Virus record (IMG/VR): IMGVR_UViG_2909314774_000001
DNA length: 64,000 nucleotides
Origin: a virus
Lineage: Duplodnaviria; Heunggongvirae; Uroviricota; Caudoviricetes
Reading direction: 5' to 3' (one strand)
The number at the start of each line of letters is the position of its first letter. Position 1 is the first letter of the stretch. Below the pieces are notes generated by a model, which searched no databases, was not told the DNA's origin, and saw nothing but the letters and a program-made list of their open reading frames with translations. The translations under genes were made by a program, and so were the position numbers. This document shows, one piece after another, positions 13 to 53,720 of this stretch.

Positions 13-3000
13 GTGCAATCAGAGCTAAATGATTTCTCTGATTGGGCGACCTATGCAAGCAAAAGCGCAAGCCGCTTTGGTACGGAGGTCAAAGAAGCCT
101 CTGCGTCCGTGAGTGGCATGAATACGCGCCTTAATACCACGACGAAGCGACTCAGTAATTGGGGTGTCACAACGAGTCAGGCTGCCGAGGGACTGAAAAA
201 GGTTCGTGAGCAGATGGACGAAGTTATCGGACGTCAGCAACTGATTAGCAAGCCGGTACGCGTTCGTACATCTGGAAGTGGCGATGGTGGTAGCGGGCGG
301 CGTAGCGGCGCTTCTGGCCATAGCGGTAAAAGTAACGAAGGAGGTATGTTCTCTGGCCTTCGTGGCAACATTTTCCTGCTTGGCGAGATCGGAGATGCAG
401 CCAGAACGGTTACTGACATCATGTTTGGATGGCAGAAGCCTATTGTTGAAGCTGCGGCCGAAATGGAACGTATGCGGGTGATGCTTCGTGGGTTGAATAA
501 GGAGAAGTCTAACCCTGGCCAGGCTGCCGCCGATGACATGAAGTACATCGTAGACATGGCTCAAAATGCGCCGTTCGCGATGCAGGCGTTAACAGATTCC
601 TTCGTGAAGTTTCGTTCTGCTGGCTTAGATCCAACCGATGGCTCTCTGAAGGCGCTGGTGGACTCCGTTGCTCGTTTTGGTGGTGATAGTGAGCTGTTGA
701 AACGTGCGGCTGTGGCCGTTCAGCAGATGTCCGGTAAGGGCGTCGTGTCAATGGAAGAGCTACGTCAGCAATTAGGTGAAGCCGTTCCTAACGCGATGCA
801 GGCAATGGCAGACGCCGCAGGCATCACTATGGGGGAACTGACTAAAGCCGTTGCCAGCGGTACGGTTGAGGCAAAACAGGCGTTGTCTCTGATGTTTGTT
901 GGTCTGCGTGCGGAGAATGAGAACGCAGCGAAAGACATGATGCAAACCTACACAGGTGCGCTGGCGCAACTTCAGACGTCATTCACGTTATTTGCTGATC
1001 GGGTTGGTCAGGCCGGATATCTGGATTCTCTATCGAAGGGGATGAAAGAACTGGCTTCAATCATGAATAGCGCCGAAGGGATTTCGTTTGCCAATTCTTT
1101 AGGTTCGGGGTTAACAACGGCAATCGATGGGTTGCGTCAGCTTGCTCAATGGTTAGCAAAGAACCAAGAGCTGGTAATTAATCTCGGTAAGGTCGTGGCC
1201 GCGATGGTTGCGTTCAAACTGATGCGAGCAGGGATCATGGGGGTAGTTGGCGCTGGGAGCCAGATGGTTAGCACCTTTGCCACGATGGCGACCGCCATAC
1301 AGACTCCATTTAACCTCGGCGCTACAGCAGTAACTCGATTCAATCGTGCGGCACGTATGGGGCTGGCTCCGATCCCCTCTCTTATTTTCGCCATCCGTGG
1401 GGCGATTACGGGGCTTAAAGGCGCTTTTGCTGGATTAACGGCGTTCATTGCAGCAAACCCTATAGGGGCAGCATTTACAGTTGCCACTGTAGCTGTTGCT
1501 GGCCTAATCACGTACATGACCATGCTCCGCAGCGAAACTTCAAAGGTCGTTGACGAGATTAGGAAAATACCAGAAGCGATGACAGCGGCCAAACGTGCAC
1601 AAATGGCCGACCGCGCAGAAAAGCTCGAAAAGCAGATTCTTGCTGATCAACGAGCATTAAAAACTGGTGAGGGTGTTAATTACGTATCTAACTCTGCCGG
1701 TGTTATTACTCACAAAGAGTCGAAGGCTGACATCGAAGCACGCCTGAAAAAAAATCAGGAGGAGTATCAAAAGATAACCGGCACGATAGCTCTTGGTGAC
1801 GGCGCTGTAGCAAAGCGTTTGGCTAAAGAGGCTGCCGAATCTCAGATTGAGAAAATTCGAGCGGAAAACCAGATTTTCGCGGCAACATTCGTGAAAGCCC
1901 GGCAAGAGGCTCTGGATAAGATCCAGAAAATCAATGATGACGGTTCACTTTCAGATGACGAAAAGAACAAGCTATTGGCACCGTTACGTGAAACGGTAAA
2001 CAAAAGCTATCTGGAGCCTGCGCAAAAACTGGTTGATTCACTTTCTTCTCGTAAGAATGCGACCGAGAAGCAAATTGCGACTCTTAATGATCAGCTTGAA
2101 AAAGCCAAAAAGGATGGAAATACCGAGCAGATCCAGAAACTGCAAGGCAGTATTCGTGGTTATCAGGAGCATTTGGAAGCCGTTGCTCAGGAGCTGACTC
2201 AGGCAGAGTTCGAGAGAGATAACGCGGCCAAAACTGGTAAGGGCGTAATGTCAAACCAGGGGACTGTTCTTGGGTTAGGTACAACTGATAAAGCTGCTCA
2301 GAAGGCGCTGGCGCAATATATGCGAAACCAGATGGATTCTGCGACTTATCAACGTACTTTGCCTGACGGCACTCCGATGATGGACTTCGAAGGTAAGCCG
2401 ATTATTGGGCCTAAACAACTCAAGACGCAGCTTAATTTGCAGAAAGCATCCAGCGCCAGCTCTCTGGAGAAAATGAGCGATGAAGAGCGTGCCGCAGCCA
2501 TTGCTGCACTGACTAAAGCTCGTGAACAGGATGCCGCAGCCGCCGAGAAAGCAGCCCAACGATCAGCTAACGCCTCGCAGCGTGCGGCCAAGAAGGAACA
2601 GGCAGCGCAACAGAAACTGGCAGCCGGATACCAGAAGGCTCTGGACAAAGCCGATCAGCTTATGGGGCAAATGGGTGAAAGCTCTAAGGCTACGGTATCG
2701 TTTGATCAGTCTCTTCGCGATACAACGAAATCGCTGACAGATTTGGCTAATGCGGTTCCTAACGAGTTCATCACTCAAGAGATGATCGACAAGGCGAAAA
2801 AACGTCTTGAAGACCTCAAAAATGCGACACCTGAATATCGCGAGATGTTTAATCGCCGCAATGTTGAGCAGATGATCTCCACCTGGGCACCGGAGGCGGA
2901 TTCCATTATTAGTGCTGGCTATACGCCGTCTCGCGAAGAGAAAGTTGCTGATTTCGAAGACACCTACAACCGCAATCTCAAAGCGTTGATAGAACTTCGT

Positions 3001-4224
3001 GATAAGGCGTCTGATCCTAAAGTTGTGGCGCTTTATACAAAGAAAATCAATCAACTGATTGCTGCTGGCAATACCGCGCTTATTAAAGAGACGGGGATTG
3101 CGACGCAGAAGTTGGCACTGGAATACGAAAACCTGGCAGAGCAGATCGAAAGCACCTGGACTGATTTGTTTAGTGGCTTAACTGATGTCCTGACTGATTT
3201 CGTTATTAACGGGAAGATGAGCTTCTCCAGCCTATCTCAGTCCATTTTGAAAGACATCACCAATATGGTCGTGAAGTCGCAGATCACGCTGCCTCTAATG
3301 AACATGTTGGGGATGGGAACCACCGCAGCTGGTAGTTCACAGAGTGGTAATTTGCTGACCGGGGTTGCTTCCGCCGTTGCCAATCAAGGGGTACGAATGG
3401 GCAACACTGTTAACGGCGACAAGTCGGTAGGAGAAGCCACGAAGGAGACGTCCAGTTCGGTAACTGGATTGGGGCAAACGACACAGCAGACCACCAGCGC
3501 AATTGGCACAGCAACAAATGCGATTGGTAGCTGGGTATCAGGGCTATTTGATAGCACCGAAGCCAAAGATGCTGAGACAAAAGCAGTGAAGGATTCCATC
3601 TTCTCGATGCAGAACCTCAGCTCTGTTACCGGTGCTCTGTCTGCCGCGTTTGCAATGCTTGGAGCTAATGCTTCCGGCTCTGGTAATAAGTGGTTGAATT
3701 TCGGCGCGACAGTTGCATCTGGGTTGGTTTCAGTATGGGCTGGTGGTGGATTCGATGGATTGATGTCCGGTTCTTCTGGCTCAACTTCCGGGTTCAACAA
3801 TCTGACCAGTTCTGCTGCCGATGGCACGAATGGTATTCCTGCAATTCCGAAGTTTGCAAATGGTGGCATATTCGGAAAAGACGGCGTGATCCCGCTCCGG
3901 GCATACCAGAAAGGCGGTATCGCCAACTCACCTCAATTGGCGTTGTTTGGGGAAGGCGATATGAATGAGGCGTATGTTCCATTGCCTGATGGTCGAACAA
4001 TCCCTGTAACGCTCAGTACCGATGGTATGAGTGGAGGAGGAAATGTTCTTTCTCCGGTATCAATTGAGATCAACGTCCATAGTGACGGTAGCACAACTGA
4101 ATCCGGCGATACAGAAAGCATATGGAACAATGCCGCTCAACGGATGAAAGCAATCGCGCTTGAGACTATCGCTCAAGAGAAACGCCCTGGCGGATCACTC
4201 AACCCAAACACTCAACGTAACTAA
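13..4224 (+). CDS. tail tape measure protein (lambda gpH-like)
   Basis: 1403-aa ORF directly upstream of M/L/K/I/J homologues; long alpha-helical Ala/Gln/Lys-rich body, internal hydrophobic segments, Gly-rich C-terminal region. In-frame TAA at 10-12 means the gene starts inside the window; exact start (GTG at 13 or a later ATG) uncertain. Confidence 0.8.
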   Translation: MQSELNDFSDWATYASKSASRFGTEVKEASASVSGMNTRLNTTTKRLSNWGVTTSQAAEGLKKVREQMDEVIGRQQLISKPVRVRTSGSGDGGSGRRSGASGHSGKSNEGGMFSGLRGNIFLLGEIGDAARTVTDIMFGWQKPIVEAAAEMERMRVMLRGLNKEKSNPGQAAADDMKYIVDMAQNAPFAMQALTDSFVKFRSAGLDPTDGSLKALVDSVARFGGDSELLKRAAVAVQQMSGKGVVSMEELRQQLGEAVPNAMQAMADAAGITMGELTKAVASGTVEAKQALSLMFVGLRAENENAAKDMMQTYTGALAQLQTSFTLFADRVGQAGYLDSLSKGMKELASIMNSAEGISFANSLGSGLTTAIDGLRQLAQWLAKNQELVINLGKVVAAMVAFKLMRAGIMGVVGAGSQMVSTFATMATAIQTPFNLGATAVTRFNRAARMGLAPIPSLIFAIRGAITGLKGAFAGLTAFIAANPIGAAFTVATVAVAGLITYMTMLRSETSKVVDEIRKIPEAMTAAKRAQMADRAEKLEKQILADQRALKTGEGVNYVSNSAGVITHKESKADIEARLKKNQEEYQKITGTIALGDGAVAKRLAKEAAESQIEKIRAENQIFAATFVKARQEALDKIQKINDDGSLSDDEKNKLLAPLRETVNKSYLEPAQKLVDSLSSRKNATEKQIATLNDQLEKAKKDGNTEQIQKLQGSIRGYQEHLEAVAQELTQAEFERDNAAKTGKGVMSNQGTVLGLGTTDKAAQKALAQYMRNQMDSATYQRTLPDGTPMMDFEGKPIIGPKQLKTQLNLQKASSASSLEKMSDEERAAAIAALTKAREQDAAAAEKAAQRSANASQRAAKKEQAAQQKLAAGYQKALDKADQLMGQMGESSKATVSFDQSLRDTTKSLTDLANAVPNEFITQEMIDKAKKRLEDLKNATPEYREMFNRRNVEQMISTWAPEADSIISAGYTPSREEKVADFEDTYNRNLKALIELRDKASDPKVVALYTKKINQLIAAGNTALIKETGIATQKLALEYENLAEQIESTWTDLFSGLTDVLTDFVINGKMSFSSLSQSILKDITNMVVKSQITLPLMNMLGMGTTAAGSSQSGNLLTGVASAVANQGVRMGNTVNGDKSVGEATKETSSSVTGLGQTTQQTTSAIGTATNAIGSWVSGLFDSTEAKDAETKAVKDSIFSMQNLSSVTGALSAAFAMLGANASGSGNKWLNFGATVASGLVSVWAGGGFDGLMSGSSGSTSGFNNLTSSAADGTNGIPAIPKFANGGIFGKDGVIPLRAYQKGGIANSPQLALFGEGDMNEAYVPLPDGRTIPVTLSTDGMSGGGNVLSPVSIEINVHSDGSTTESGDTESIWNNAAQRMKAIALETIAQEKRPGGSLNPNTQRN

Positions 4225-20029: not shown

Positions 20030-20551
20030 TTATTCTTCGAACAATTTTTCGATAGATTTTGTAGGATAGAACAAAGAACGCTCGTTGTTACCAACCAGCT
20101 GGATAAAGCCTAAACTTTTATAAAACGCCTTGGCTTTGTCATTTAACGCCTCAACGAAAAGTCCATGAATGCCTACAGCAAGAGATGCATTGTACACAAC
20201 GCGCATTGCATGTGTTACAAGCATTGAGCCAAATCCTTGACCTTGAAGGGACTTGTCCAAAGCCAGCCTACCCAAAGTAACACTTGGAACATTCCGATAA
20301 GGAACCTTCTTTTGTTTGCTTCTTGAAGGTAAGGACTCCTTTTCAAAACAACTACCTGACAAAGTGTAATATCCTAACACTTTTGGCCTTTCTTCTTGAG
20401 TGCAAAGCACATAAGCACGAAGAATTTTTCCCTCATGCTGCCTTTTTAAGTGGTTGGCTAAAAAGGCGTTTAGTGACTCTTCGCCGCAATCAAAACCGTT
20501 TAGATCATAATCTTTCTCTCCAGAGAAAATCTCTATCGTTGTATTGCTCAC
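20030..20551 (-). CDS. GNAT-family acetyltransferase toxin (TacT/KacT/AtaT-like)
   Basis: 173 aa with GNAT acetyl-CoA binding signature (LALDKSLQGQGFGSMLV); immediately downstream (8-nt gap) of a DUF1778-type RHH antitoxin gene. Confidence 0.75.
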   Translation of the reverse strand: MSNTTIEIFSGEKDYDLNGFDCGEESLNAFLANHLKRQHEGKILRAYVLCTQEERPKVLGYYTLSGSCFEKESLPSRSKQKKVPYRNVPSVTLGRLALDKSLQGQGFGSMLVTHAMRVVYNASLAVGIHGLFVEALNDKAKAFYKSLGFIQLVGNNERSLFYPTKSIEKLFEE

Positions 20552-21146: not shown

Positions 21147-21815
21147 ATGACCAAGATCTTTGTGGTTGGCGGCACAAAGGGCGGGCCTGGCAAATCCACC
21201 GTTGCCCAGCAAATTGCCGTTTGCCTGAAAGTCAAAAAGAAGAAGAAGGTTTATATTACCGATATAGATATTCAGCGCACGACAACGAGCTGGTGTGAAG
21301 ACCGTCGACAGAACGAAGACCTTGAGCTGATTCCTTTTGCATACGTTCAGGATGACATCATTAAGCACCTAAAATCGCTTCAGGGTAGAGCTGAGTTTGT
21401 AGTGGTAGATGCCGGTGGCTTTGACTCCGAAATTCAGCGACAAGCGATGCTGATGGCTGACGTTATCATTATCCCGCTTCGTCCTAAGCGTCGTGATTTG
21501 AAATCTCTGCGTGACATTGATCCTATTATCGACAATGTTCGTAATGTAAACGATAAAGTGAAGGTCCGCGCGGTCATGAACCAGTGCCCGGCTTTGCCAT
21601 CACAAGTGTCTCGCATTCTGGCGGCTAAAGAGATTGTCGAGACGTTTGGCATCGAGTCTGCGCCAGTCAATCTATATAACCGCAACGTCTATGATGATGC
21701 GGAAGAGTCTGGTCGTTCTATCTTTGAAATGACCGGTAGCGAGCGCGACAAAAAGGCGGAAGCCGAGTTTGAAGAATTTGTAGATTATCTGTTGAGTCTG
21801 GAGGAAGAAGAATAA
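21147..21815 (+). CDS. ParA-type partition ATPase (small, deviant Walker A)
   Basis: VVGGTKGGPGKST deviant Walker A (KGGxGKS/T), 222 aa, followed by an overlapping small RHH protein. Confidence 0.8.
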   Translation: MTKIFVVGGTKGGPGKSTVAQQIAVCLKVKKKKKVYITDIDIQRTTTSWCEDRRQNEDLELIPFAYVQDDIIKHLKSLQGRAEFVVVDAGGFDSEIQRQAMLMADVIIIPLRPKRRDLKSLRDIDPIIDNVRNVNDKVKVRAVMNQCPALPSQVSRILAAKEIVETFGIESAPVNLYNRNVYDDAEESGRSIFEMTGSERDKKAEAEFEEFVDYLLSLEEEE

Positions 21816-22225: not shown

Positions 22226-23932
22226 ATGGAATCGATAGAAGTATTTTTAAAAAATTTTTTGGACTCAGATCATCGGGTTGCTGTCATAAAAGGAAATTGG
22301 GGAGTAGGTAAAACGCATTATTGGAATAGCTTTTATACTAAACATTCTAAAAAATTAGATTTTAATGCATATTCATATGTTTCTTTGTTTGGAATAAATT
22401 CTATTGGAGACATTAAAAAAGCTCTTTATCATTGTGCCACACCAATTAATGAAAAGAAATATAAAGAACTGATTTTATCTGAAACGGATCGAACTATGAT
22501 TCGTTATAGAAATGGGTTTTGGGGATGGTTGAAATACAACTCCTTGTCAAAATTTTTAATACATTTTGGAAAGAACGATTTTTTTGGGTTCAAAACTGAT
22601 AATCTGCTGTCATCTCTTGAGTATAAATTTGTTAATAATTATTTGGTTTGCATTGATGATATTGAACGAAAAGGTAGTGCGCTAGAAATTAAAGAGATTA
22701 TGGGGGTAATTGATGAGTTGGCAAGAAGAAAAAATTGCAAGGTTGTTCTAATATTAAATGAAGATAACTTACATGAAGAAACTGCACAACAACAGTTTTT
22801 AGAGTATAGAGAAAAAATAATTGATGTGGAAATAAAATACGATCCCACGCCTGAGAAAAACTTAAGAAAAGTTTTTTATGAGACTGACCCTGATTTTCTT
22901 TTGTTAAAAAACCTAGTAAATGATTTAAACATCAAAAACATTAGAATATTAAATAAAATAAAATCATCTCTAGTTATATTTAGAGATGTGCTAAAGTTAG
23001 CAGAGGATAAGGTTAGAGAAAGTTTTATTAATAGATTGGTCTTATTTTCAGTGGTTTACTATTTTGGTGTTCCTAGCGTTGATTATGCTTCATTTAAGGA
23101 GTCAATCAAAAATATACATGCATTCGACTATATGTTAGATGATAAAGATGAAAAGGAAGAAGTTAACTCTGTATATTCATTTGTTAATAGCCTTGATGTT
23201 ATTTATGAACGAGCAGAAAGTGCTTTCGATGATGATATAGATTTTTACCTTAAGAACGGTTATGTTTCTTCTGAAAGCAATATTCTAAATATAATAAAAG
23301 AAAAAAATGAACAATATAGAGATAATAGGGTTTTATGTGAGGTTTATAAAATTTGGGATGTTTTTAGAAACTCTTTTAAAGATAATGAATCAGAGTTTAT
23401 TTTTCAAATTGAGCGCGTAATTAACGATAGTCTGTTGCGTATACCAATTGGACAGTTCGTAGGTTTAATAAATGTCCTAATTAAATTGGATAGAGATTGT
23501 AATAATATTATAGAGGCATATGCAGATGCTTTTGTTAATAAAGAAAATGCGTATGCTACATTTAATTCTTTGCGAGTAGAGATCTTCGGAAATGAAGAAT
23601 TAGGTTTCAGAATTGAAAAAAAATTGAAAGATAGAAATCCAGATGACTATAACTTAGATAAAATTATAAAAAAAATAGCTGGTGGAAGATTTAACCATAG
23701 TGATGTGAATATTCTTAACAGTTTTTCTAAAGATGATTACGTAAACTGGATATTATCCTGTGATCAGGATGCTTTGAATTTAGTAGAAGAGACTATGCTC
23801 AAGTTCAAGGGTATGCAACACCCGACAGACGAACAGAAGAGCATCACTGATAAAGCAATAGAAGCTTTGGAGGAAGTTGCTTCAAAATCAACACTTAATA
23901 AGCTGCGTGTTAATAAAATACTCAATCATTAA
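22226..23932 (+). CDS. KAP-family-like P-loop NTPase in low-GC cargo region
   Basis: Walker A GNWGVGKT at residues ~23-30 and Walker B-like LVCIDDIER ~110 aa downstream (KAP NTPases typically hhhhDDLDR); gene is markedly AT-rich, with Asn/Lys/Ile-rich codon usage unlike its neighbours. Confidence 0.55.
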   Translation: MESIEVFLKNFLDSDHRVAVIKGNWGVGKTHYWNSFYTKHSKKLDFNAYSYVSLFGINSIGDIKKALYHCATPINEKKYKELILSETDRTMIRYRNGFWGWLKYNSLSKFLIHFGKNDFFGFKTDNLLSSLEYKFVNNYLVCIDDIERKGSALEIKEIMGVIDELARRKNCKVVLILNEDNLHEETAQQQFLEYREKIIDVEIKYDPTPEKNLRKVFYETDPDFLLLKNLVNDLNIKNIRILNKIKSSLVIFRDVLKLAEDKVRESFINRLVLFSVVYYFGVPSVDYASFKESIKNIHAFDYMLDDKDEKEEVNSVYSFVNSLDVIYERAESAFDDDIDFYLKNGYVSSESNILNIIKEKNEQYRDNRVLCEVYKIWDVFRNSFKDNESEFIFQIERVINDSLLRIPIGQFVGLINVLIKLDRDCNNIIEAYADAFVNKENAYATFNSLRVEIFGNEELGFRIEKKLKDRNPDDYNLDKIIKKIAGGRFNHSDVNILNSFSKDDYVNWILSCDQDALNLVEETMLKFKGMQHPTDEQKSITDKAIEALEEVASKSTLNKLRVNKILNH

Positions 23933-30210: not shown

Positions 30211-31636
30211 TCGTATTAAGTAAAAGGGAGAAAGAAACGCTTCATGAAATCAGTAAGTGGCCGGAGTTCCCTGAGTACTGGAAGCCTAAAACGCGAGCTA
30301 AGTTAGAGCGTTTAGGGTTGGTTGCAAACGTTTCTGAAACGTGGTGCTCGGCCAACTACCAGTTAACTGATAAAGGGAAAGTATTGCTACAGCAATTAGT
30401 AGAATCAGGAGTGTTAAAATGATTCCATACATCTCATTAGCTTTTATGGGTGGCTTCCTTATCGGCTTCGGCATCTGTCGTGATTTAATTAAGCAGGAAC
30501 TTAAAACCAAAACACTGTGCATCGGAAAGCGTGTGTATCGGGTAGTTCATGAAACAAAGGTTAGAAAATGAGCAATTTAACTTCTTGGGACTGGTGGTTG
30601 GCCACCTATTTCTTAGCGGCCGGAGTCGCATTCGCCTTTTACGTAGGTCAGTTAGTCGTAAAACTGCTGCTGATTAAATTTGCCAGTCATAAACGTATCG
30701 ATGATGGTCTGTGGCGTCTTGGCACCCTGGTGGAAACTCGCTACGGGCAACTTAAGGAGAACGAAACCATTACTATCCAAGCGAAACGGTTCACTGCCAC
30801 CATCACAAGAACACCTAGTCGTAGAGTGGCCTTGATCAAAAAAGTCACAACCGAATAAAAATACAATGATAAGTATTTACTTACTTATCTTTTATGTATA
30901 AGATGACTTTGTTTTCGTTGAGACGCGACTGTTTGAACTTAAATACAAGTGCAAACGAAGAAGTCTATCTGGCAGTAGCCTAATAAGCCAAACACCAGCG
31001 AGGTCAGTTTCCAGCCTCGTTACCGAAATGGGACACACTGAGCGAGTGTGATTGCAGAACGCAGGAGGGAACATTCATGTTCCCTCCGATGAAGTAACAG
31101 AATGGGCGGTTGGTATATTTTCAACTCCATATGACTCCCGGATTCTTAGCCACTGACCGCCCATCCTGTTACGTCATTTTGTTCAATTATGCCGTTTATA
31201 CTGGGTTAAAAAGCGGCGACGTAGCCCGGCTGGTATGGTTAGCCAGCACACAACGTTGAGGCCATTACATTTTTATCAATTCTAAGGTTCTATTCACAGA
31301 GATACCGGCGAGCGTTGATATGTAACATGTTGGGCAAACATTCAATCGGAGTAGTGGCCTCAACGTTGTGAAGACGGGATTGTTGTGTAGGTTTAACCAC
31401 TGTTGCCATTGGTGCCTGTTTTCACAACAAATGATTCCATACATCACATTGTATAAATTACAAAGTAGGTGCTGTCCTCAGAAACATCATCTACTTAAAG
31501 ATTTTGCCTTCTACTATTGAGCGAAGTCGAAAGCGTCTGGCACTAACGAAAAGTGCAAGTAGCGGTGCGTTTCCTGGCAGAAACTAAACCGTCGCGATTG
31601 GCACTGTTGAGTAATAAATACTGGCAGTGCTGAATT

Positions 31637-31711
31637 GATGGTGTAGCTCAGCGGTAGAGCAGTTGGCTGTTAACCAACTGGTCGGTGGTTCGAATCCACC
31701 CACCATCGCCA
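31637..31711 (+). tRNA. tRNA-Asn (GTT)
   Basis: Hand-folded cloverleaf: acceptor GATGGTG/CACCATC, D-arm GCTC-AGCGGTA-GAGC, anticodon arm GTTGG-CTGTTAA-CCAAC, T-arm GGTGG-TTCGAAT-CCACC, encoded CCA. Confidence 0.85.
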
Positions 31712-31716
31712 ATTTA

Positions 31717-31803
31717 GGGGAGTTAGTCCGTAGGGGCAGCGGGGTAGACTGTAAATCTACTGTCATTGCGACTCGGGTGGTTCGACTCCATCACTCCCCA
31801 CCA
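31717..31803 (+). tRNA. tRNA-Tyr (GTA)
   Basis: Acceptor GGGGAGT/ACTCCCC, anticodon arm GTAGA-CTGTAAA-TCTAC, long variable arm, T-loop TTCGACT, encoded CCA; resembles E. coli tRNA-Tyr. Confidence 0.8.
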
Positions 31804-31807
31804 AATT

Positions 31808-31883
31808 GCCGGTTTAGCTCAGTTGGTAGAGCGCCTGCCTTGTAAGCAGGATGTCAGCGGTTCGATCCCGTTAACCGGCACCA
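31808..31883 (+). tRNA. tRNA-Thr (TGT)
   Basis: Acceptor GCCGGTT/AACCGGC, D-arm GCTC-AGTTGGTA-GAGC, anticodon arm CCTGC-CTTGTAA-GCAGG, T-arm AGCGG-TTCGATC-CCGTT, encoded CCA. Confidence 0.8.
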
Positions 31884-32203
31884 ACACAACAGGTAAGAGC
31901 ATTGGGCGAATCGGCGATACTGACCACAAGCCCGTAAATCGATAGAGTCAGACCAGTGCTCTTACCGTTGTGAGGAAGTGCAGCTCTTTGAAGCAACCAG
32001 AAGATAAGCATCTGGCTTCACAACACAACGATAAGATCATTACGGTTAATCGTCGTTCATGTGCACAATGACTGGTCGAAAGGTAGTGATCTTACCGTTG
32101 TGATGAATGCACAGGCTGATGTGCCGCAACTACAGTAGTGCGCGCTTTGCGGGGCTTGCTACAACCCTGTGTCGGAGTTCAGCACCGACCATCACAATAG
32201 CTG

Positions 32204-32290
32204 GAGAGTAGGGAGCATGGTGCTCAAGCGGTCTTGAAATCCGTCCCATTGTGCAAACGATGATGGTTCGATTCCATTACTCTCCGCCAG
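32204..32290 (+). tRNA. divergent tRNA-Ser-like gene (anticodon TGA), possibly degenerate
   Basis: Acceptor GGAGAGT/ACTCTCC, T-arm GATGG-TTCGATT-CCATT and CCA end are good; anticodon loop CTTGAAA as in tRNA-Ser(UGA), but the D-arm and anticodon stem fold poorly. Confidence 0.45.
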
Positions 32291-32443
32291 ACACAGCGTT
32301 GAGCGGTTTGGCCTTTTAATCAACCAGATTAAGACTCCGCTAACATAAACCAGACCGCTCAACGCTGTGATAGACAATTACGGCAGACGTTCTTAACCAT
32401 AGCTTGCTAACATCCTAGCAACACTTTTTTCAGCGCAAAATTC

Positions 32444-32466
32444 AAAGGGGCTTCGGCCCCTTTTTT
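32444..32466. terminator. bidirectional intrinsic terminator
   Basis: AAAGGGGC-TTCG-GCCCCTTTTTT hairpin with A-tract upstream and T-tract downstream, between the tRNA cluster and the 3' end of the minus-strand 420-aa gene. Confidence 0.7.
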
Positions 32467-32481
32467 GTTGAACAGTGCAAT

Positions 32482-33744
32482 TTACTTTGCATAGTCGCCC
32501 AATTTTAATATTTCGCGCTTATATTCATTAACCATGCTACTGGATTCAGTATAAATTCGATTTAAAAGATTATCGTTATCTTTATTTTCATTTATCTTAA
32601 TTAGTGCTAATTTATATTCATAGTCATCAAATGCCACAATTAAATGGTGGCCTGGGATTATATCTTCGTCACTCTTAAAGTATATATCTTCAAGTATGTA
32701 ATCTAGTTGATTAGATTTTCTTTTCTCGATGTAATCTTCAGCCATAGCTATTACATCATTCCTGTCATTTAACCTGTTTTTTTCGGAAGGCACATCTTCG
32801 TAATGTTGCACGATTGAACAACCAATAAGGCGTGGGATGTAAACGTCAAAATGAGTAACTCTATCATTCGCGGTTTTAAGTAGTTCCTCAAAGTAGTTTC
32901 TTACATGTAAAGGCAACTTCTCAAAGTAATCATTAATTATAGGAGAACAAGGAGTTTTATAATTCATAAGAACCGACGGTACGAGCTTTGGGTGTCGAAA
33001 CATCCAGTCCCTTTTAACGTCCGATGGAACATAATAACTTTTAATGATATTATCAAAATAATTTATCATTCGAGATTTGAATATTTTGTTGAATCTAAGG
33101 TTTATGAATGTATCCAGATAAGGCATATTTGAATAAGCATCATCAAAAAATATTTCATCATTGAAAAAATCATATTTATTCAATAAACAACACAGTTTTT
33201 CCGAATTAATATGTTCACAATAATCGATTTTTAATCCAAAGATAGCAATGATCAACTTCATCTGAGGTGGGATTTTAAAAATTAATTGTGACACATACGC
33301 TCTTTTTTCCTTGAGACATTCCCCATCAATATAAAATGAACCATCCACATACTCAAATATATTAATAATATGCTTCACATACTGTATTACCTCATGCTGT
33401 CTTACCAATGGGTAATATAGTCTATGTAACTCATCGCTGTTTAAATTAATTTTGTGTTTATCGATAATTTGTTTTGCAAGAAGACATAACTCATCATGTT
33501 GATTTAATAAGGAATCAAACCATTGTTTAAATGCACTCTTTCGCATTTCGAACAATGATTCAGTTGTTAATTGAAGGGCTGAAAAAGCTGCTTTTGCACT
33601 TTTTCTCGCTTCGTAGGCATTCCATGCTGTTGCTATAAAAGCAAATGCTGTAGCCAATGTTCCAACAGTTTGACCATTTAAAACAACCCAATCCCAAAAA
33701 ATGACGGTGAGCAGTAGTATAATAATGAAAATTAAAAAAGGCAT
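32482..33744 (-). CDS. membrane-anchored protein of unknown function in low-GC cargo region (abortive-infection-like candidate)
   Basis: 420 aa; two N-terminal hydrophobic helices (FLIFIIILLLTVIFWDWVV, GTLATAFAFIATAW) then a large Asn/Tyr/Asp-rich soluble domain; opposite strand to neighbours, AT-rich, own promoter region and terminator. Confidence 0.5.
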   Translation of the reverse strand: MPFLIFIIILLLTVIFWDWVVLNGQTVGTLATAFAFIATAWNAYEARKSAKAAFSALQLTTESLFEMRKSAFKQWFDSLLNQHDELCLLAKQIIDKHKINLNSDELHRLYYPLVRQHEVIQYVKHIINIFEYVDGSFYIDGECLKEKRAYVSQLIFKIPPQMKLIIAIFGLKIDYCEHINSEKLCCLLNKYDFFNDEIFFDDAYSNMPYLDTFINLRFNKIFKSRMINYFDNIIKSYYVPSDVKRDWMFRHPKLVPSVLMNYKTPCSPIINDYFEKLPLHVRNYFEELLKTANDRVTHFDVYIPRLIGCSIVQHYEDVPSEKNRLNDRNDVIAMAEDYIEKRKSNQLDYILEDIYFKSDEDIIPGHHLIVAFDDYEYKLALIKINENKDNDNLLNRIYTESSSMVNEYKREILKLGDYAK

Positions 33745-33918
33745 GTATGTATTTCACTCTACTAACTATAAAATATTAGGCTAATGTTAACCAAACAATG
33801 CCTTAATTAATAGATTGATCGAGGCTTTAATAGCTTTATAATGCAGATTGCAAAGATAAGTATGCACACACCTATCTTCTTTGTAAGTAAAGTTGCATAT
33901 CAATTCTATGAGGTAACA

Positions 33919-34164
33919 ATGACAATCACTATCTACGGACGAGATAACTGCTCATACTGCAAACGTGCGGTCGAGCTGGCGAAGCAACTAAAGGGACATG
34001 GCTACGGTGATTATGAGTACATCGACATCACTACTGCCGGTATCGACAAGGAAAAACTTAGTGAAATTGTTGGTAAACCGGTAGAGACTATCCCCCAAGT
34101 ACTGATCGATGGTCAACCGATTGGCGGATACACAGAACTGGCTGCATACGTCAGCACCCTCTGA
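33919..34164 (+). CDS. glutaredoxin-like protein (NrdH/Grx type)
   Basis: MTITIYGRDNCSYCKRA with CxxC active site and GGY..L C-terminal motif of glutaredoxins; GAGG RBS; followed by hairpin terminator 34169-34194 (AACGGCTC-ACAG-GAGCCGTT + T-run). Confidence 0.75.
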   Translation: MTITIYGRDNCSYCKRAVELAKQLKGHGYGDYEYIDITTAGIDKEKLSEIVGKPVETIPQVLIDGQPIGGYTELAAYVSTL

Positions 34165-34375
34165 TTTTAACGGCTCACAGGAGCCGTTTTTTATTCCCAC
34201 CAAACTCACTCCTGTTTCCCTTAAAATTCAAAAAACAACGTCTAAATGATTCCATACCTACTATGTATGGAATCATTGCTGAAAATGAGTTACTTTTACT
34301 CTTGATCCTATAAGAATCTATGCCTAATATACTGTTTACTTATACAGTGCATCGGCGTAACTCGGTGATTGTCAT

Positions 34376-35479
34376 ATGAAAAATAGCTTTGACAGAGCAC
34401 GCGCTGCGGAGAACACCTCAAAAGAGGCGATAGAGTATCTCGAAAGAGCATCTCAAATGCAGGCCGTTATGATCTCCCAGGTCAGCAATGACATGAGATT
34501 CTCGGACGCATTCATGTTATTCACTCGCTTATCTCTGCTGATAACCAGACGTCGGCCAGAGATCGCTGTTCATTGTATTTTGATACATGTTTTGCCGCAC
34601 ATTGCCGATGTAAAAGTAAGTGACATTAATAGGTTCATGGTGAACCAACTGGTCAACCCACTAATACTGGATGGCAAAATTGTTATGGGCCGCCGCGTTT
34701 TCTCTCTGATGAAGCAGTTCCTTAGCTGGTGCGCCTTCCAGGGGATGATAGACGTGTCACCGTTAAACGATATGTCACTTAACAAAGTTGCCGGTGGCGC
34801 AAAGCCCACACCTCGCGAGCGGAAGCTGACCGACGCAGAGGTATGGGTGTTCTGGAATATATGGGACTACTTCAATGTGTGTGCTGGTACAAAATGGGCG
34901 GCCAGGCTATGTCTTGTATCCGCAAGACGACCTGACGAAGTACTGCGGGCTAAAAAAAGTGAGTTCAATCTTAAGCGTGGGGTTTGGAATCAAGGCAAGA
35001 GGAACAAATCTGCCCGTGAGCATTCTCTGCCTTTAAGCTCATTAATGCGCACTTGTATTGAAGAGTTGTTCGAATATGGTAAAGACAGCCAGTGGCTCGT
35101 GCCTTCGAATAAAAAAATCGGGAAAGACCTTCCTATGTCTAAAGTGGCAATAGCCCAGGCATTACGTCGTATTCTGGAACGACCAGAACTGATGGAGCTT
35201 GAGCCATTTACACCCCGAGATTTGCGCCGTACTGCGCGTAGTTACTTCCCAGCATTAGGCATAAGCCAGGAGGTATCACGTAAAATCATGAACCACAGTC
35301 TTGAGGGGATAGATCGGGTCTACGACCGGCACGATTATATGGACGAGATGCGAGACGCCTTAGAAAGTTTCTCGACGTACATCGCATCAATCGTAGAGCA
35401 ACCGGATTTAGACGAAATTGACCACAAATTTAAGGGAGATCGTCTATCAACAGAGCTTATTCGTGTAAATTTTTCATAG
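34376..35479 (+). CDS. tyrosine site-specific recombinase
   Basis: C-terminal catalytic region with LVSARRPDEVL (box I Arg), PRDLRRTARS (box II) and IMNHSLEGIDRVYDRHDY (HxxxxxxxxY, Tyr nucleophile). N-terminal region unusual, start uncertain. Confidence 0.7.
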   Translation: MKNSFDRARAAENTSKEAIEYLERASQMQAVMISQVSNDMRFSDAFMLFTRLSLLITRRRPEIAVHCILIHVLPHIADVKVSDINRFMVNQLVNPLILDGKIVMGRRVFSLMKQFLSWCAFQGMIDVSPLNDMSLNKVAGGAKPTPRERKLTDAEVWVFWNIWDYFNVCAGTKWAARLCLVSARRPDEVLRAKKSEFNLKRGVWNQGKRNKSAREHSLPLSSLMRTCIEELFEYGKDSQWLVPSNKKIGKDLPMSKVAIAQALRRILERPELMELEPFTPRDLRRTARSYFPALGISQEVSRKIMNHSLEGIDRVYDRHDYMDEMRDALESFSTYIASIVEQPDLDEIDHKFKGDRLSTELIRVNFS

Positions 35480-35860
35480 AGACTTTATGGCCTCAACAAC
35501 CTTTTGTGATGCGCCTTTCTCTTTACCGAATCGCTCGTTATATGCAGCAAGAACCTGTTTTTCGTCCTCGTTAAGAGGAGCAGTGCCTTCTTTGTATAAA
35601 AATGCTGCGAGTTCGGGTTGGCGTTCTTCCAGCACCATCATCATAAGACGACTTGGCTCAATACCCAGTGCCAGCGCCAGCGGACGAACCTTATCGATAG
35701 GCAAAGGAATTTTGCCGCTTTTAATTAAAGAAAGGTTGTTGGCGTTTTTATACCCAATTGTTTTGGCTATCTGGGCCTGGCTCATAGGTGAGGATTCAAT
35801 CAACCCTGCGATAAAAGCAGCGTAGCGACTTTCTATAAATTCAATCTTGTTATCAGACAT
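35474..35860 (-). CDS. XRE-family helix-turn-helix transcriptional regulator
   Basis: 128 aa, convergent with the recombinase; HTH segment SQAQIAKTIGYKNANNLSLIKSG resembles Cro/CI-type DNA-binding domains. Confidence 0.6.
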   Translation of the reverse strand: MSDNKIEFIESRYAAFIAGLIESSPMSQAQIAKTIGYKNANNLSLIKSGKIPLPIDKVRPLALALGIEPSRLMMMVLEERQPELAAFLYKEGTAPLNEDEKQVLAAYNERFGKEKGASQKVVEAIKSL

Positions 35861-52664: not shown

Positions 52665-53720
52665 CTATTTGCGAGTCTTTGCCTTGCGCAACTCTTCGAG
52701 AAGCGCCAGTTCTTCTTTACTCAACATGACCATTTTGCCTTCTTTTTCGTCAGGCACAACGTCGATAATGTCATCTTGATTCTCATCTGGGAGGCTATAT
52801 TCCGTCTCATCATTATCGATTTTTGTTGATATTTGTGCCTGGCGTAACTTTGGCCGCCTATAGTGGATGACGAAGTAGACCGAGTTTCCGCGCTTAACTT
52901 CCGTGTAATCGAGATATCCTATCTCTCGCAGCTGTTCCATAGCCTTTCTTACCGTCGCATTCTGAGTAATAGTGCGACTTGTCAGATTAAGTCTGGCGCG
53001 TAAACGGGCTAGTGATATTGGTGCCGGATCAGGCGGCAAACTTTCAATAAAAGTATAAAGCGCCTGAGCGGATTCTTTTCTTGAGAGTTCGTTTATAGCC
53101 CGGAGTTGCAGAAGAACCTTTTTGTCGAACTGGTAGAGTTCGAAAATCTTGGGATCTGCTTTCAGTTCGACCGTATCGTGCTTGACACTATATTTTGCCG
53201 TTTGCACAAGATGCGTTACGTAAAACTCATCAGAGCCTTTGCTACGGAACGAGATGGTATTTGTGGCAATACGGCTTAGCGAACTGTCCAGGCGTTTGCG
53301 TAACTTCGCTGATGACCTGGCGGTCGGAATGCCACACAGCCTTACAAACTCAACGAACGGCAATGTGACAGTATCGCCAACGACCTTGTGTTTGGCAAAC
53401 GCGTGGATTATTCCCACCCACGTTTTAAAGTCGTTATCCATATCAAGCCGAAGGCCAGAGATCCTTATGTCTTCGTACCCTTCGGCTTTTGCCAGAGACA
53501 GCTGTTTGAGTTCAGCAGAGGCATCCATAGAGACCATTTGCCCCTTTCTTCCTCTGGATGTCGATTTCAGCGTCGGAACGAAGAGGCCCAGACGCATCAA
53601 AGCAACAGGCTGAACAGTGTTATTAGTGTTAGGAACCAACGTAACAACTTCGCCTGTCTTTTTATCTGTTTCTGAAAATGCTTCAACGATCGCTATGTTT
53701 TTATTGCCGTTTTCGCTCAT
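52665..53720 (-). CDS. repA: iteron-binding replication initiator (RepA-like)
   Basis: 351-aa ORF flanked on both sides by arrays of its likely binding sites and adjacent to DnaA boxes and an AT-rich stretch; call is from context, I cannot verify the family by sequence. Confidence 0.6.

Follow-up and report, generated by a model that had tools for sequence, protein, structure and literature searches.

A minus-strand gene in a replaceable cassette

We analysed a stretch of DNA of 64,000 nucleotides (IMG/VR record IMGVR_UViG_2909314774_000001; Caudoviricetes), referred to throughout as the window and the source of all coordinates, which belongs to an Escherichia coli phage-plasmid of the SSU5 type. 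Our subject is an open reading frame (ORF) on its minus strand at 32482..33744, which starts with ATG and encodes a protein of 420 amino acids that we call AbiC-like. The start codon is confirmed by the homologues of the protein, in which M1 is invariant and P2 nearly so. Over the 7 kb around the gene the element is ∼98% identical, across 73–76% of the length, to Escherichia phage CMS-2020a and phage Cyrano, SSU5 itself being more distant.

A first-pass annotation, made from the letters alone, had singled out this locus as a markedly AT-rich minus-strand frame within a plus-strand block, and both features were borne out. Nearly all long ORFs of the window lie on the plus strand, and the AbiC-like gene is among very few genuine minus-strand genes, along with those for a Rep3 initiator (52665-53720), a GNAT protein (20030-20551) and an XRE-type repressor (35474-35860), whose orientation it shares. 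Its guanine plus cytosine (GC) content is 0.315, where the window averages 0.461 (z=−3.5 in sliding windows of 1263 bp), and the corresponding value at third codon positions (GC3) is 0.283 against 0.475±0.039 for 30 other genes of the window. The composition of the gene is thus strongly non-native; the window holds just one more comparable low-GC island, at 22-24 kb, around a gene for a KAP-family NTPase (22226-23932).

The gene stands between a plus-strand transfer RNA (tRNA) cluster on the left (Asn-GTT, Tyr-GTA, Thr-TGT and Ser-TGA; 31637..32289) and, on the right, the plus-strand glutaredoxin gene grxA (33919..34164; PF00462, E 7e-11), beyond which lies the backbone tyrosine recombinase/integrase gene (34376..35479, plus strand; PF00589, phrog_1). 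The glutaredoxin frame of 107 amino acids listed from 33841 is over-extended by 78 nt, because four relatives align at the ATG at 33919, which is preceded by a GAGG Shine–Dalgarno sequence; this start gives 81 amino acids, as in annotated GrxA. In the alignments with four relatives, identity extended to the end of a terminator (∼32468) and resumed at the grxA ATG, with unrelated sequence between. We therefore delimit a replaceable cargo cassette of ∼1.45 kb at ∼32469..33918, which comprises the gene and its own upstream region, holds this single ORF and contains no RNA element as judged by Rfam.

The contents of this slot were compared on backbones with 98.4–100% identical integrase and repressor. 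In CP027358 and in phage Cyrano the slot holds only gp49 (PF13876), fused upstream of grxA, and no AbiC-like gene. OZ121086 instead has an unrelated minus-strand gene for a protein of 298 amino acids without a Pfam match (2677-3573 of its locus), and CP058309 carries a homologue of 432 amino acids that is 31% identical and just at the threshold of the Pfam putAbiC family. Neither gp49 nor the 298-amino-acid protein is a known defence gene product. An 86%-identical allele takes the same position and opposite orientation in Escherichia albertii, as do homologues of 32–36% identity in elements of Klebsiella, Enterobacter and Salmonella. With its conserved flanks and interchangeable cargo, the slot is a cargo hotspot of the phage-plasmid.

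Comparison across related elements, which the first-pass annotation had proposed, revealed the gene to be accessory and absent from the closest sequenced phages. The allele of the window (at least 90% nucleotide identity) occurred in 39 of 5,426 complete E. coli genomes, with all copies on plasmids; a backbone marker (at least 95%) was present in ∼217 E. coli genomes, so that ∼18% of the backbones carried this allele. In PLSDB some allele was found in ∼137 records, compared with ∼649 that contain the SSU5-type ligase. A tblastn search of the 50,697 phage records of INPHARED returned no copy, the gene occurring only in records deposited as plasmids. The gene is neither universal in the lineage nor native in its codon usage.

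Two claims about the gene's borders had to be amended. The hairpin at 32444..32463, with its 8-bp stem (5 GC pairs) and 4-nt loop, is a good GC-rich terminator and plausibly bidirectional, as had been proposed, because a T-run follows it on the plus strand and an A-run precedes it. Its sequence is identical in relatives without the AbiC-like gene, however, so it is the backbone terminator of the tRNA cluster, merely shared by the AbiC-like gene and not specific to it. The gene's own upstream region, placed at 33745-33840, is real but longer: since grxA starts at 33919, the cassette-specific divergent intergenic region measures 174 bp (33745..33918). Within it a candidate promoter for the AbiC-like gene runs from 33794 to 33765 on the minus strand (TTGGTT-18-TATAGT), a weak match to the consensus that is no better than chance in AT-rich DNA (6 sites found against 9.7 expected).

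Divergent homology to the putAbiC family

The 420-amino-acid protein itself had no match in Pfam (E≤1), NCBIfam or PADLOC. By sequence the PDB returned insignificant matches only (best E 0.13), and a PDB profile search with an alignment of 54 sequences gave only noise. In PHROGs v4 the protein matched phrog_18168 at full length (residues 14-420, E 2e-217); this is effectively the same protein family catalogued from (pro)phages, and, being of unknown function, it adds no functional information. Phrog_18168 is presumably drawn from prophage or plasmid-prophage data, and this match, set against the lack of a copy among GenBank phages, illustrates how the cargo of phage-plasmids comes to be divided over 'phage' and 'plasmid' databases.

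A tblastn search of plasmids yielded a distant Pantoea match annotated as 'putative phage abortive infection protein', which scores 45.4 bits on the putAbiC family PF16872 (gathering threshold 22 bits). BLASTP aligned the two proteins with an E value of 6e-18 over residues 28-331, including the motif ATAWNAYEARKSAKAA, in place of which the Pantoea protein carries ATAWSAREARRSAKVA. The protein of the window did not attain the PF16872 threshold and other members of its clade remained below it at 15–18 bits, whereas the same-slot allele of CP058309 reached it at 22.1 bits. A profile built from seven close clade members retrieved 66 clusters among 1.84e9 representative proteins, a word-indexed profile search adding little to the exhaustive one. 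Nine of ten retrievals with E values of 1e-36 to 6e-12 exceeded the Pfam cutoff, at 32–45 bits, over the region ∼113-197; on PADLOC, ten distant members gave weak AbiC matches only. Among the 53 full-length homologues, putAbiC was matched by 39 (E≤0.01); of the PADLOC AbiC/AbiP models (PDLC02343 and PDLC02351), AbiC was matched by seven (best E 1.3e-6) and AbiP by five (best E 1.1e-4).

Comparison of profiles brought the two groups together: hhalign of the 18-sequence SSU5 clade against ten Pfam-positive proteins gave a probability of 100% and an E value of 1.9e-50 over 309 columns (residues 2-319). Y122, F193 and F194 are invariant across the 54 sequences including the protein of the window, and H83, L79, L80, L130, I158, A167 and L188 are conserved in at least 90% of them. 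By homology, the protein is a member of a highly divergent, so far unannotated clade of the putAbiC superfamily, and probably of the AbiC/P family. The remote-homology search suggested by the first-pass annotation has thus led to an abortive-infection (Abi) family and to no structural or metabolic one. With the Pantoea putAbiC protein as query, tblastn recovered Enterobacterales and Vibrio plasmids only and did not reach lactococcal AbiC or AbiP. The Pfam entry 'Abi_C' was considered as the same family and rejected, as it describes the C-terminal HEPN domain of AbiJ, an unrelated family.

The N terminus had been described as two hydrophobic helices, of which the first is strong and the second marginal. 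Transmembrane (TM) helix 1 (residues 3-22, FLIFIIILLLTVIFWDWVVL; 33679..33738, minus strand) has a Kyte–Doolittle 19-mer maximum of 2.83 and is helical in an AlphaFold2 model. Putative TM helix 2 (residues 26-44, TVGTLATAFAFIATAWNAY; 33613..33669, minus strand) is Ala/Thr-rich and weakly hydrophobic (Kyte–Doolittle value ∼1.45), and in the model it is continuous with a long helix spanning residues 24-96; at least two N-terminal hydrophobic peaks are present in 36 of the 54 family members. The most conserved motif of the clade, ATAWNAYEARKSAKAA (residues 38-53; 33586..33633, minus strand), covers the end of TM2 and a basic juxtamembrane helix. It is invariant in homologue alignment A1, and the alignment of 18 clade sequences shows no variation at T39, A40, W41, A43, A46, S49 and A53. 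Residues 45-75 carry a net charge of +3. Because this basic segment follows TM2, the positive-inside rule predicts that the soluble domain faces the cytoplasm.

That the soluble domain is rich in Asn, Tyr, Asp and Phe was confirmed for residues 51-420 (N 7.0%, Y 7.0%, D 8.4%, F 5.9%), and scans of Pfam and of NCBIfam/PADLOC found no catalytic family, in agreement with the earlier remark that no catalytic motif could be named. The equivalent of the Pfam putAbiC core, to which the PF16872 matches of homologues map, comprises residues ∼113-197 (33154..33408, minus strand) and holds Y122, F193 and F194. It is followed by a hypervariable C-terminal half (residues 201-420; 32485..33144, minus strand) of helices and a small three-stranded sheet (310-364), which is a candidate specificity or sensor region. 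The AlphaFold2 model from the 54-sequence alignment has a mean predicted local distance difference test score (pLDDT) of 85.5 and a predicted template modelling score of 0.73; it replaced an unusable model from seven sequences (pLDDT 61.6). The fold is mostly helical and runs in the order hairpin, very long helix (24-96), helical core, three-stranded sheet and long C-terminal helices. Foldseek found no significant neighbour of the model in BFVD (best E 0.4) or the PDB (best E 0.42). A match to ClyA/HlyE was considered as a hint of pore formation and set aside, its Foldseek probability of 0.06 being too weak for evidence.

Conservation is unevenly distributed along the protein. In homologues of 25–60% identity, residues 1-200 are 39–55% identical to the protein of the window and residues 201-420 are 20–21% identical; in the far group (<25%) the values are 22–31% and 12%, and many distant matches align to residues 1-200 alone. 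Relative to the E. albertii allele, the ratio of non-synonymous to synonymous substitution rates is 0.33 overall, ∼0.2 in the N-terminal module and highest, at 0.51, in residues 201-306. These ratios show a functional gene maintained under purifying selection, whose membrane-proximal module is conserved and whose distal half evolves fast.

Proteobacterial putAbiC proteins of PF16872 (for example WP_161569778 of Pantoea agglomerans) share with the protein of the window a length class of ∼400–470 amino acids, the N-terminal hydrophobic hairpin, a near-identical juxtamembrane motif (ATAW-A-EAR-SAK-A), the stalk helix and the core residues Y122/F193/F194, and they too are carried on mobile DNA, namely plasmids or integrase-flanked islands. 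In contrast to them, the protein of the window has no reportable Pfam score, is only ∼20–23% identical, has essentially no sequence alignment beyond ∼residue 320 and keeps to a single syntenic slot in phage-plasmids of the SSU5 type. With the AbiC/P group (Lactococcus lactis AbiC/Prf of pTN20, and AbiP) it has in common an N-terminal TM segment and a helical domain without a recognisable enzymatic fold, as well as its existence as a single gene on a mobile element with a GC content below that of the carrier (0.315 versus 0.461). Compared by description and through models, it differs from lactococcal AbiC in its Gram-negative host, its phage-plasmid carrier and the lack of a direct PADLOC match. 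Lactococcal AbiC was first described in 1992 and has ∼340 amino acids, against 420 here; AbiP disturbs the early-to-late switch of the phage, and the resistance conferred by the group follows normal adsorption and acts late. In the presence of AbiC (Prf) less phage major capsid protein is made, while DNA replication is unaffected (PMC13064643). A 2026 FEMS review places AbiC and AbiP in one group because of their structure and describes AbiP as requiring its TM anchor and binding RNA in preference to single-stranded DNA (PMC13064643). AbiC has been called 'not classifiable into a known domain family', and lactococcal AbiC and AbiP have likewise been reported without a match to a known fold.

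A probable abortive-infection cargo and its alternatives

The first-pass annotation had likened the gene to abortive-infection or superinfection-exclusion cargo. This general reading is supported by the putAbiC homology, the accessory distribution, the foreign composition and the sharply bounded, replaceable slot. Specifically, we consider it fairly probable that the AbiC-like gene is a lysogeny-type cargo gene ('moron') encoding a single-protein, membrane-anchored abortive-infection defence of the AbiC/AbiP type. The anti-phage function is predicted, and its outcome would be either abortive infection or exclusion.

The arrangement of conserved and variable parts suggests how such a protein could work. 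The hydrophobic hairpin, the long stalk helix and the helical putAbiC core are conserved in the family, while the C-terminal ∼220 residues are hypervariable. By the positive-inside rule, both termini would be cytoplasmic, with a periplasmic loop of only 3–5 residues, placing the whole soluble domain on the cytoplasmic side of the inner membrane. The gene, which is oriented like that of the repressor, would be driven by its own cassette-borne promoter during plasmid-prophage maintenance. If the protein resembles AbiC and AbiP in its action, the variable C-terminal half may recognise some component of an unrelated phage during infection, and the conserved module next to the membrane may execute the block, either by perturbing the membrane or by sequestering phage nucleic acid or protein at it. 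Late phage development would then fail and the host population of the phage-plasmid would be protected. Whole cassettes are exchanged in the slot, and therefore related elements carry different alleles; their differences are consistent with selection for different phage specificities.

Of three distant putAbiC relatives examined, two are found in integrase-flanked islands, the first together with AAA_15/AAA_21, HNH and DndB genes and the second with RelA_SpoT, HEPN-RES and RNase/CdiI genes. Curing an SSU5-like Klebsiella plasmid raised the efficiency of plating of three lytic phages 10- to 100-fold, an effect of the whole plasmid (PMC8969562).

Several points weigh against an Abi-type defence. 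The phenotype of this Klebsiella plasmid, p2 (CP085480), was ascribed by its authors to a restriction–modification system (PMC8969562). A lactococcal AbiC-like protein that is 38% identical to AbiC was not protective against the tested phages (PMC11381338), so membership of the putAbiC/AbiC group is no guarantee of activity, and it is from homology that an anti-phage role is predicted for the protein and its clade. The protein of the window lacks Pfam, NCBIfam and PADLOC matches and PADLOC AbiC/AbiP misses ten of ten clade alleles, so the tie to characterised lactococcal AbiC is transitive and runs by way of intermediate sequences and the models of Pfam and PADLOC. The third distant homologue stands alone amid housekeeping and metabolic genes, TM2 is weak in hydrophobicity, and the AbiC-like gene appears to have only a weak candidate in place of a confidently identified promoter. 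Because AbiC's own mechanism is unsolved, the division into an N-terminal effector and a C-terminal sensor is likewise conjectural and drawn by analogy.

Superinfection exclusion is the alternative closest in appearance. In this case the inner-membrane protein would block genome entry or an early membrane step of an incoming phage or phage-plasmid, and the host would be neither killed nor arrested. A membrane hairpin with a predicted cytoplasmic domain at the inner membrane would suit such a function, as would a prophage or moron site with its own regulatory region and an orientation against the lytic genes, and exclusion genes, too, typically show allelic diversity in a fixed slot. We nevertheless regard it as unlikely. 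Detectable relatives all belong to the putAbiC/AbiC group, the published block for AbiC is late, at capsid protein production with DNA replication unaffected, and Pfam, PHROGs and PADLOC give no similarity to a superinfection-exclusion family; moreover, a loop of ∼3–5 residues leaves almost nothing in the periplasm, where entry blockers usually act. It is also quite unlikely that the protein is membrane cargo without a defence role, serving envelope physiology, virulence, fitness, or plasmid competition or incompatibility, with nothing but ancestry in common with Abi proteins. Such a role could explain the inactivity of the 38%-identical AbiC-like protein on lactococcal phages and the solitary homologue among metabolic genes, and the SSU5-like Klebsiella plasmid also changed plasmid uptake and virulence (PMC8969562). 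The family annotation and the PADLOC and Pfam links, on the other hand, all lead to Abi proteins, two of the three distant relatives lie in defence islands, and a hypervariable half combined with cassette replacement on identical backbones marks genes in an arms race and not a housekeeping envelope function.

An accessory role in the element's own cycle, for instance as a lysis-timing or antiholin-like membrane protein or as a replication or partition tether, is very improbable, given that ∼80% of the otherwise near-identical elements lack the gene, as do infectious relatives, phage Cyrano among them. Its foreign composition, its orientation against the surrounding operon and its replacement in the slot by unrelated genes speak in the same direction, against a membrane anchor and a position among replication-type genes (primase, ligase, tRNAs, grxA, integrase and dnaE) that would fit such a role. 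Least credible is that the protein stabilises the phage-plasmid as a toxin of post-segregational killing or addiction. Single membrane-active proteins can be toxic, and a YafO toxin gene lies close to the region in other relatives, but the 1.45-kb cassette contains neither a partner ORF nor an Rfam-detectable antisense or antitoxin RNA, the protein's 420 amino acids far exceed membrane toxins of the hok/ldr type, and its homology is to an Abi family.

If the gene is Abi-type defence cargo, the slot itself may have a wider significance. We propose, tentatively and with some doubt, that the tRNA-grxA slot is a dedicated immunity locus with a series of AbiC-like alleles, which would combine a common N-terminal effector with exchangeable C-terminal phage-sensing domains; the clade would escape Pfam, PADLOC and DefenseFinder and be carried by about one fifth of the SSU5-type elements across Escherichia, Klebsiella, Enterobacter and Salmonella. 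The P2 and P4 defence hotspots of temperate phages and satellites, reportedly described by Rousset et al. in 2022, resemble this slot in their fixed flanks and sharply bounded, low-GC, interchangeable and oppositely oriented cargo. Those hotspots house many unrelated systems, whereas a large share of the occupants of this slot belongs to one highly diversified family, forming an allele series of 31–55% identity.

In recent surveys SSU5-type phage-plasmids carry few defence systems, and a large DefenseFinder survey of such elements does not have AbiC among its listed systems, which is consistent with a clade that escapes current models. To a specialist an AbiC-like clade is unsurprising, yet it exposes an annotation blind spot. 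SSU5-type phage-plasmids are frequent in clinical E. coli, Shigella, Klebsiella and Salmonella. An active family would be a widespread anti-phage determinant overlooked because current hidden Markov models miss it, with a bearing on host-range prediction in phage therapy and on the persistence of 'cryptic' plasmids. With a dedicated immunity locus, phage resistance in clinical Enterobacteriaceae would have a contributor that has so far gone unrecognised, and AbiC's mechanism, a problem of 30 years' standing, would gain its first genetically tractable model in E. coli. Given a series of E. coli alleles whose C-terminal parts are naturally swapped on isogenic backbones, it would be straightforward to identify the trigger and dissect the effector.

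Neighbouring features

Beyond the candidate promoter of the AbiC-like gene, the divergent region contains a good sigma-70-like promoter for grxA on the plus strand (TTGATC-16-TATAAT, 33815-33842). Between its −10 box and the grxA start lies a palindrome, AGATAAGT-N8-ACCTATCT (33854-33877). Imperfect versions of it persist in the cassettes of CP058309, E. albertii and Klebsiella, whose upstream regions are otherwise unrelated. By its position and conservation it may be an operator for grxA, for the divergent gene or for both.

Recombinase-site-like repeats had been said to bracket the locus. Copies of AATGATTCCATAC do flank the tRNAs, the AbiC-like gene and grxA, at 31430-31442 and within a palindrome at 34245-34277, but they do not delimit the cassette. 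As borders of a mobile unit that would explain the polymorphism they were rejected, because the cassette junctions (∼32468 and 33919) lie elsewhere. The right-hand site, AATGATTCCATAC-CTACTAT-GTATGGAATCATT, consists of perfect 13-bp inverted arms around a 7-bp spacer and has the look of a lox/dif-like core; it lies ∼100 bp upstream of the tyrosine recombinase gene, and the third arm copy is upstream of the tRNA cluster.

The interval between grxA and the integrase gene is a second variable slot, empty in the window. OZ121086 (4179-4733 of its locus) and phage Cyrano (6049-6603 of its locus) encode there a minus-strand protein of 184 amino acids without a Pfam match, and the YafO toxin gene occupies this position in the Klebsiella and Enterobacter relatives. 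A second candidate for defence-type cargo within the window is the KAP-family P-loop NTPase gene of the other low-GC island (22226-23932, plus strand; 568 amino acids, PF07693 at 25.8 bits, GC 0.293, GC3 0.234), which sits directly downstream of a gene for a ParA/MipZ-like ATPase (21147-21815).

A link between the tRNA-Asn and tRNA-Tyr genes and the Asn/Tyr-rich protein was considered and rejected, because relatives without the AbiC-like gene keep the tRNA cluster. The cluster is itself polymorphic, as tRNA-Tyr (31717-31803) is present in the window, CP027358 and OZ121086 and missing from phage Cyrano and CP058309, which have Asn, Thr and Ser only. Directly after tRNA-Ser a 20-nt inverted repeat (32292-32369; 95% complementary, 38-nt loop) is fully kept in all compared relatives. 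Three copies of a 23-nt direct repeat, AGTG-TCTTACCGTTGTGA-GAA, occupy spacers around the tRNA genes (31353-31375, 31955-31977 and 32085-32107; 74–100% identity), and Rfam gave a weak match to a transfer-messenger RNA or tRNA-like sequence at 30932-31034 (E 0.025). These repeats and the weak match may be tRNA remnants.

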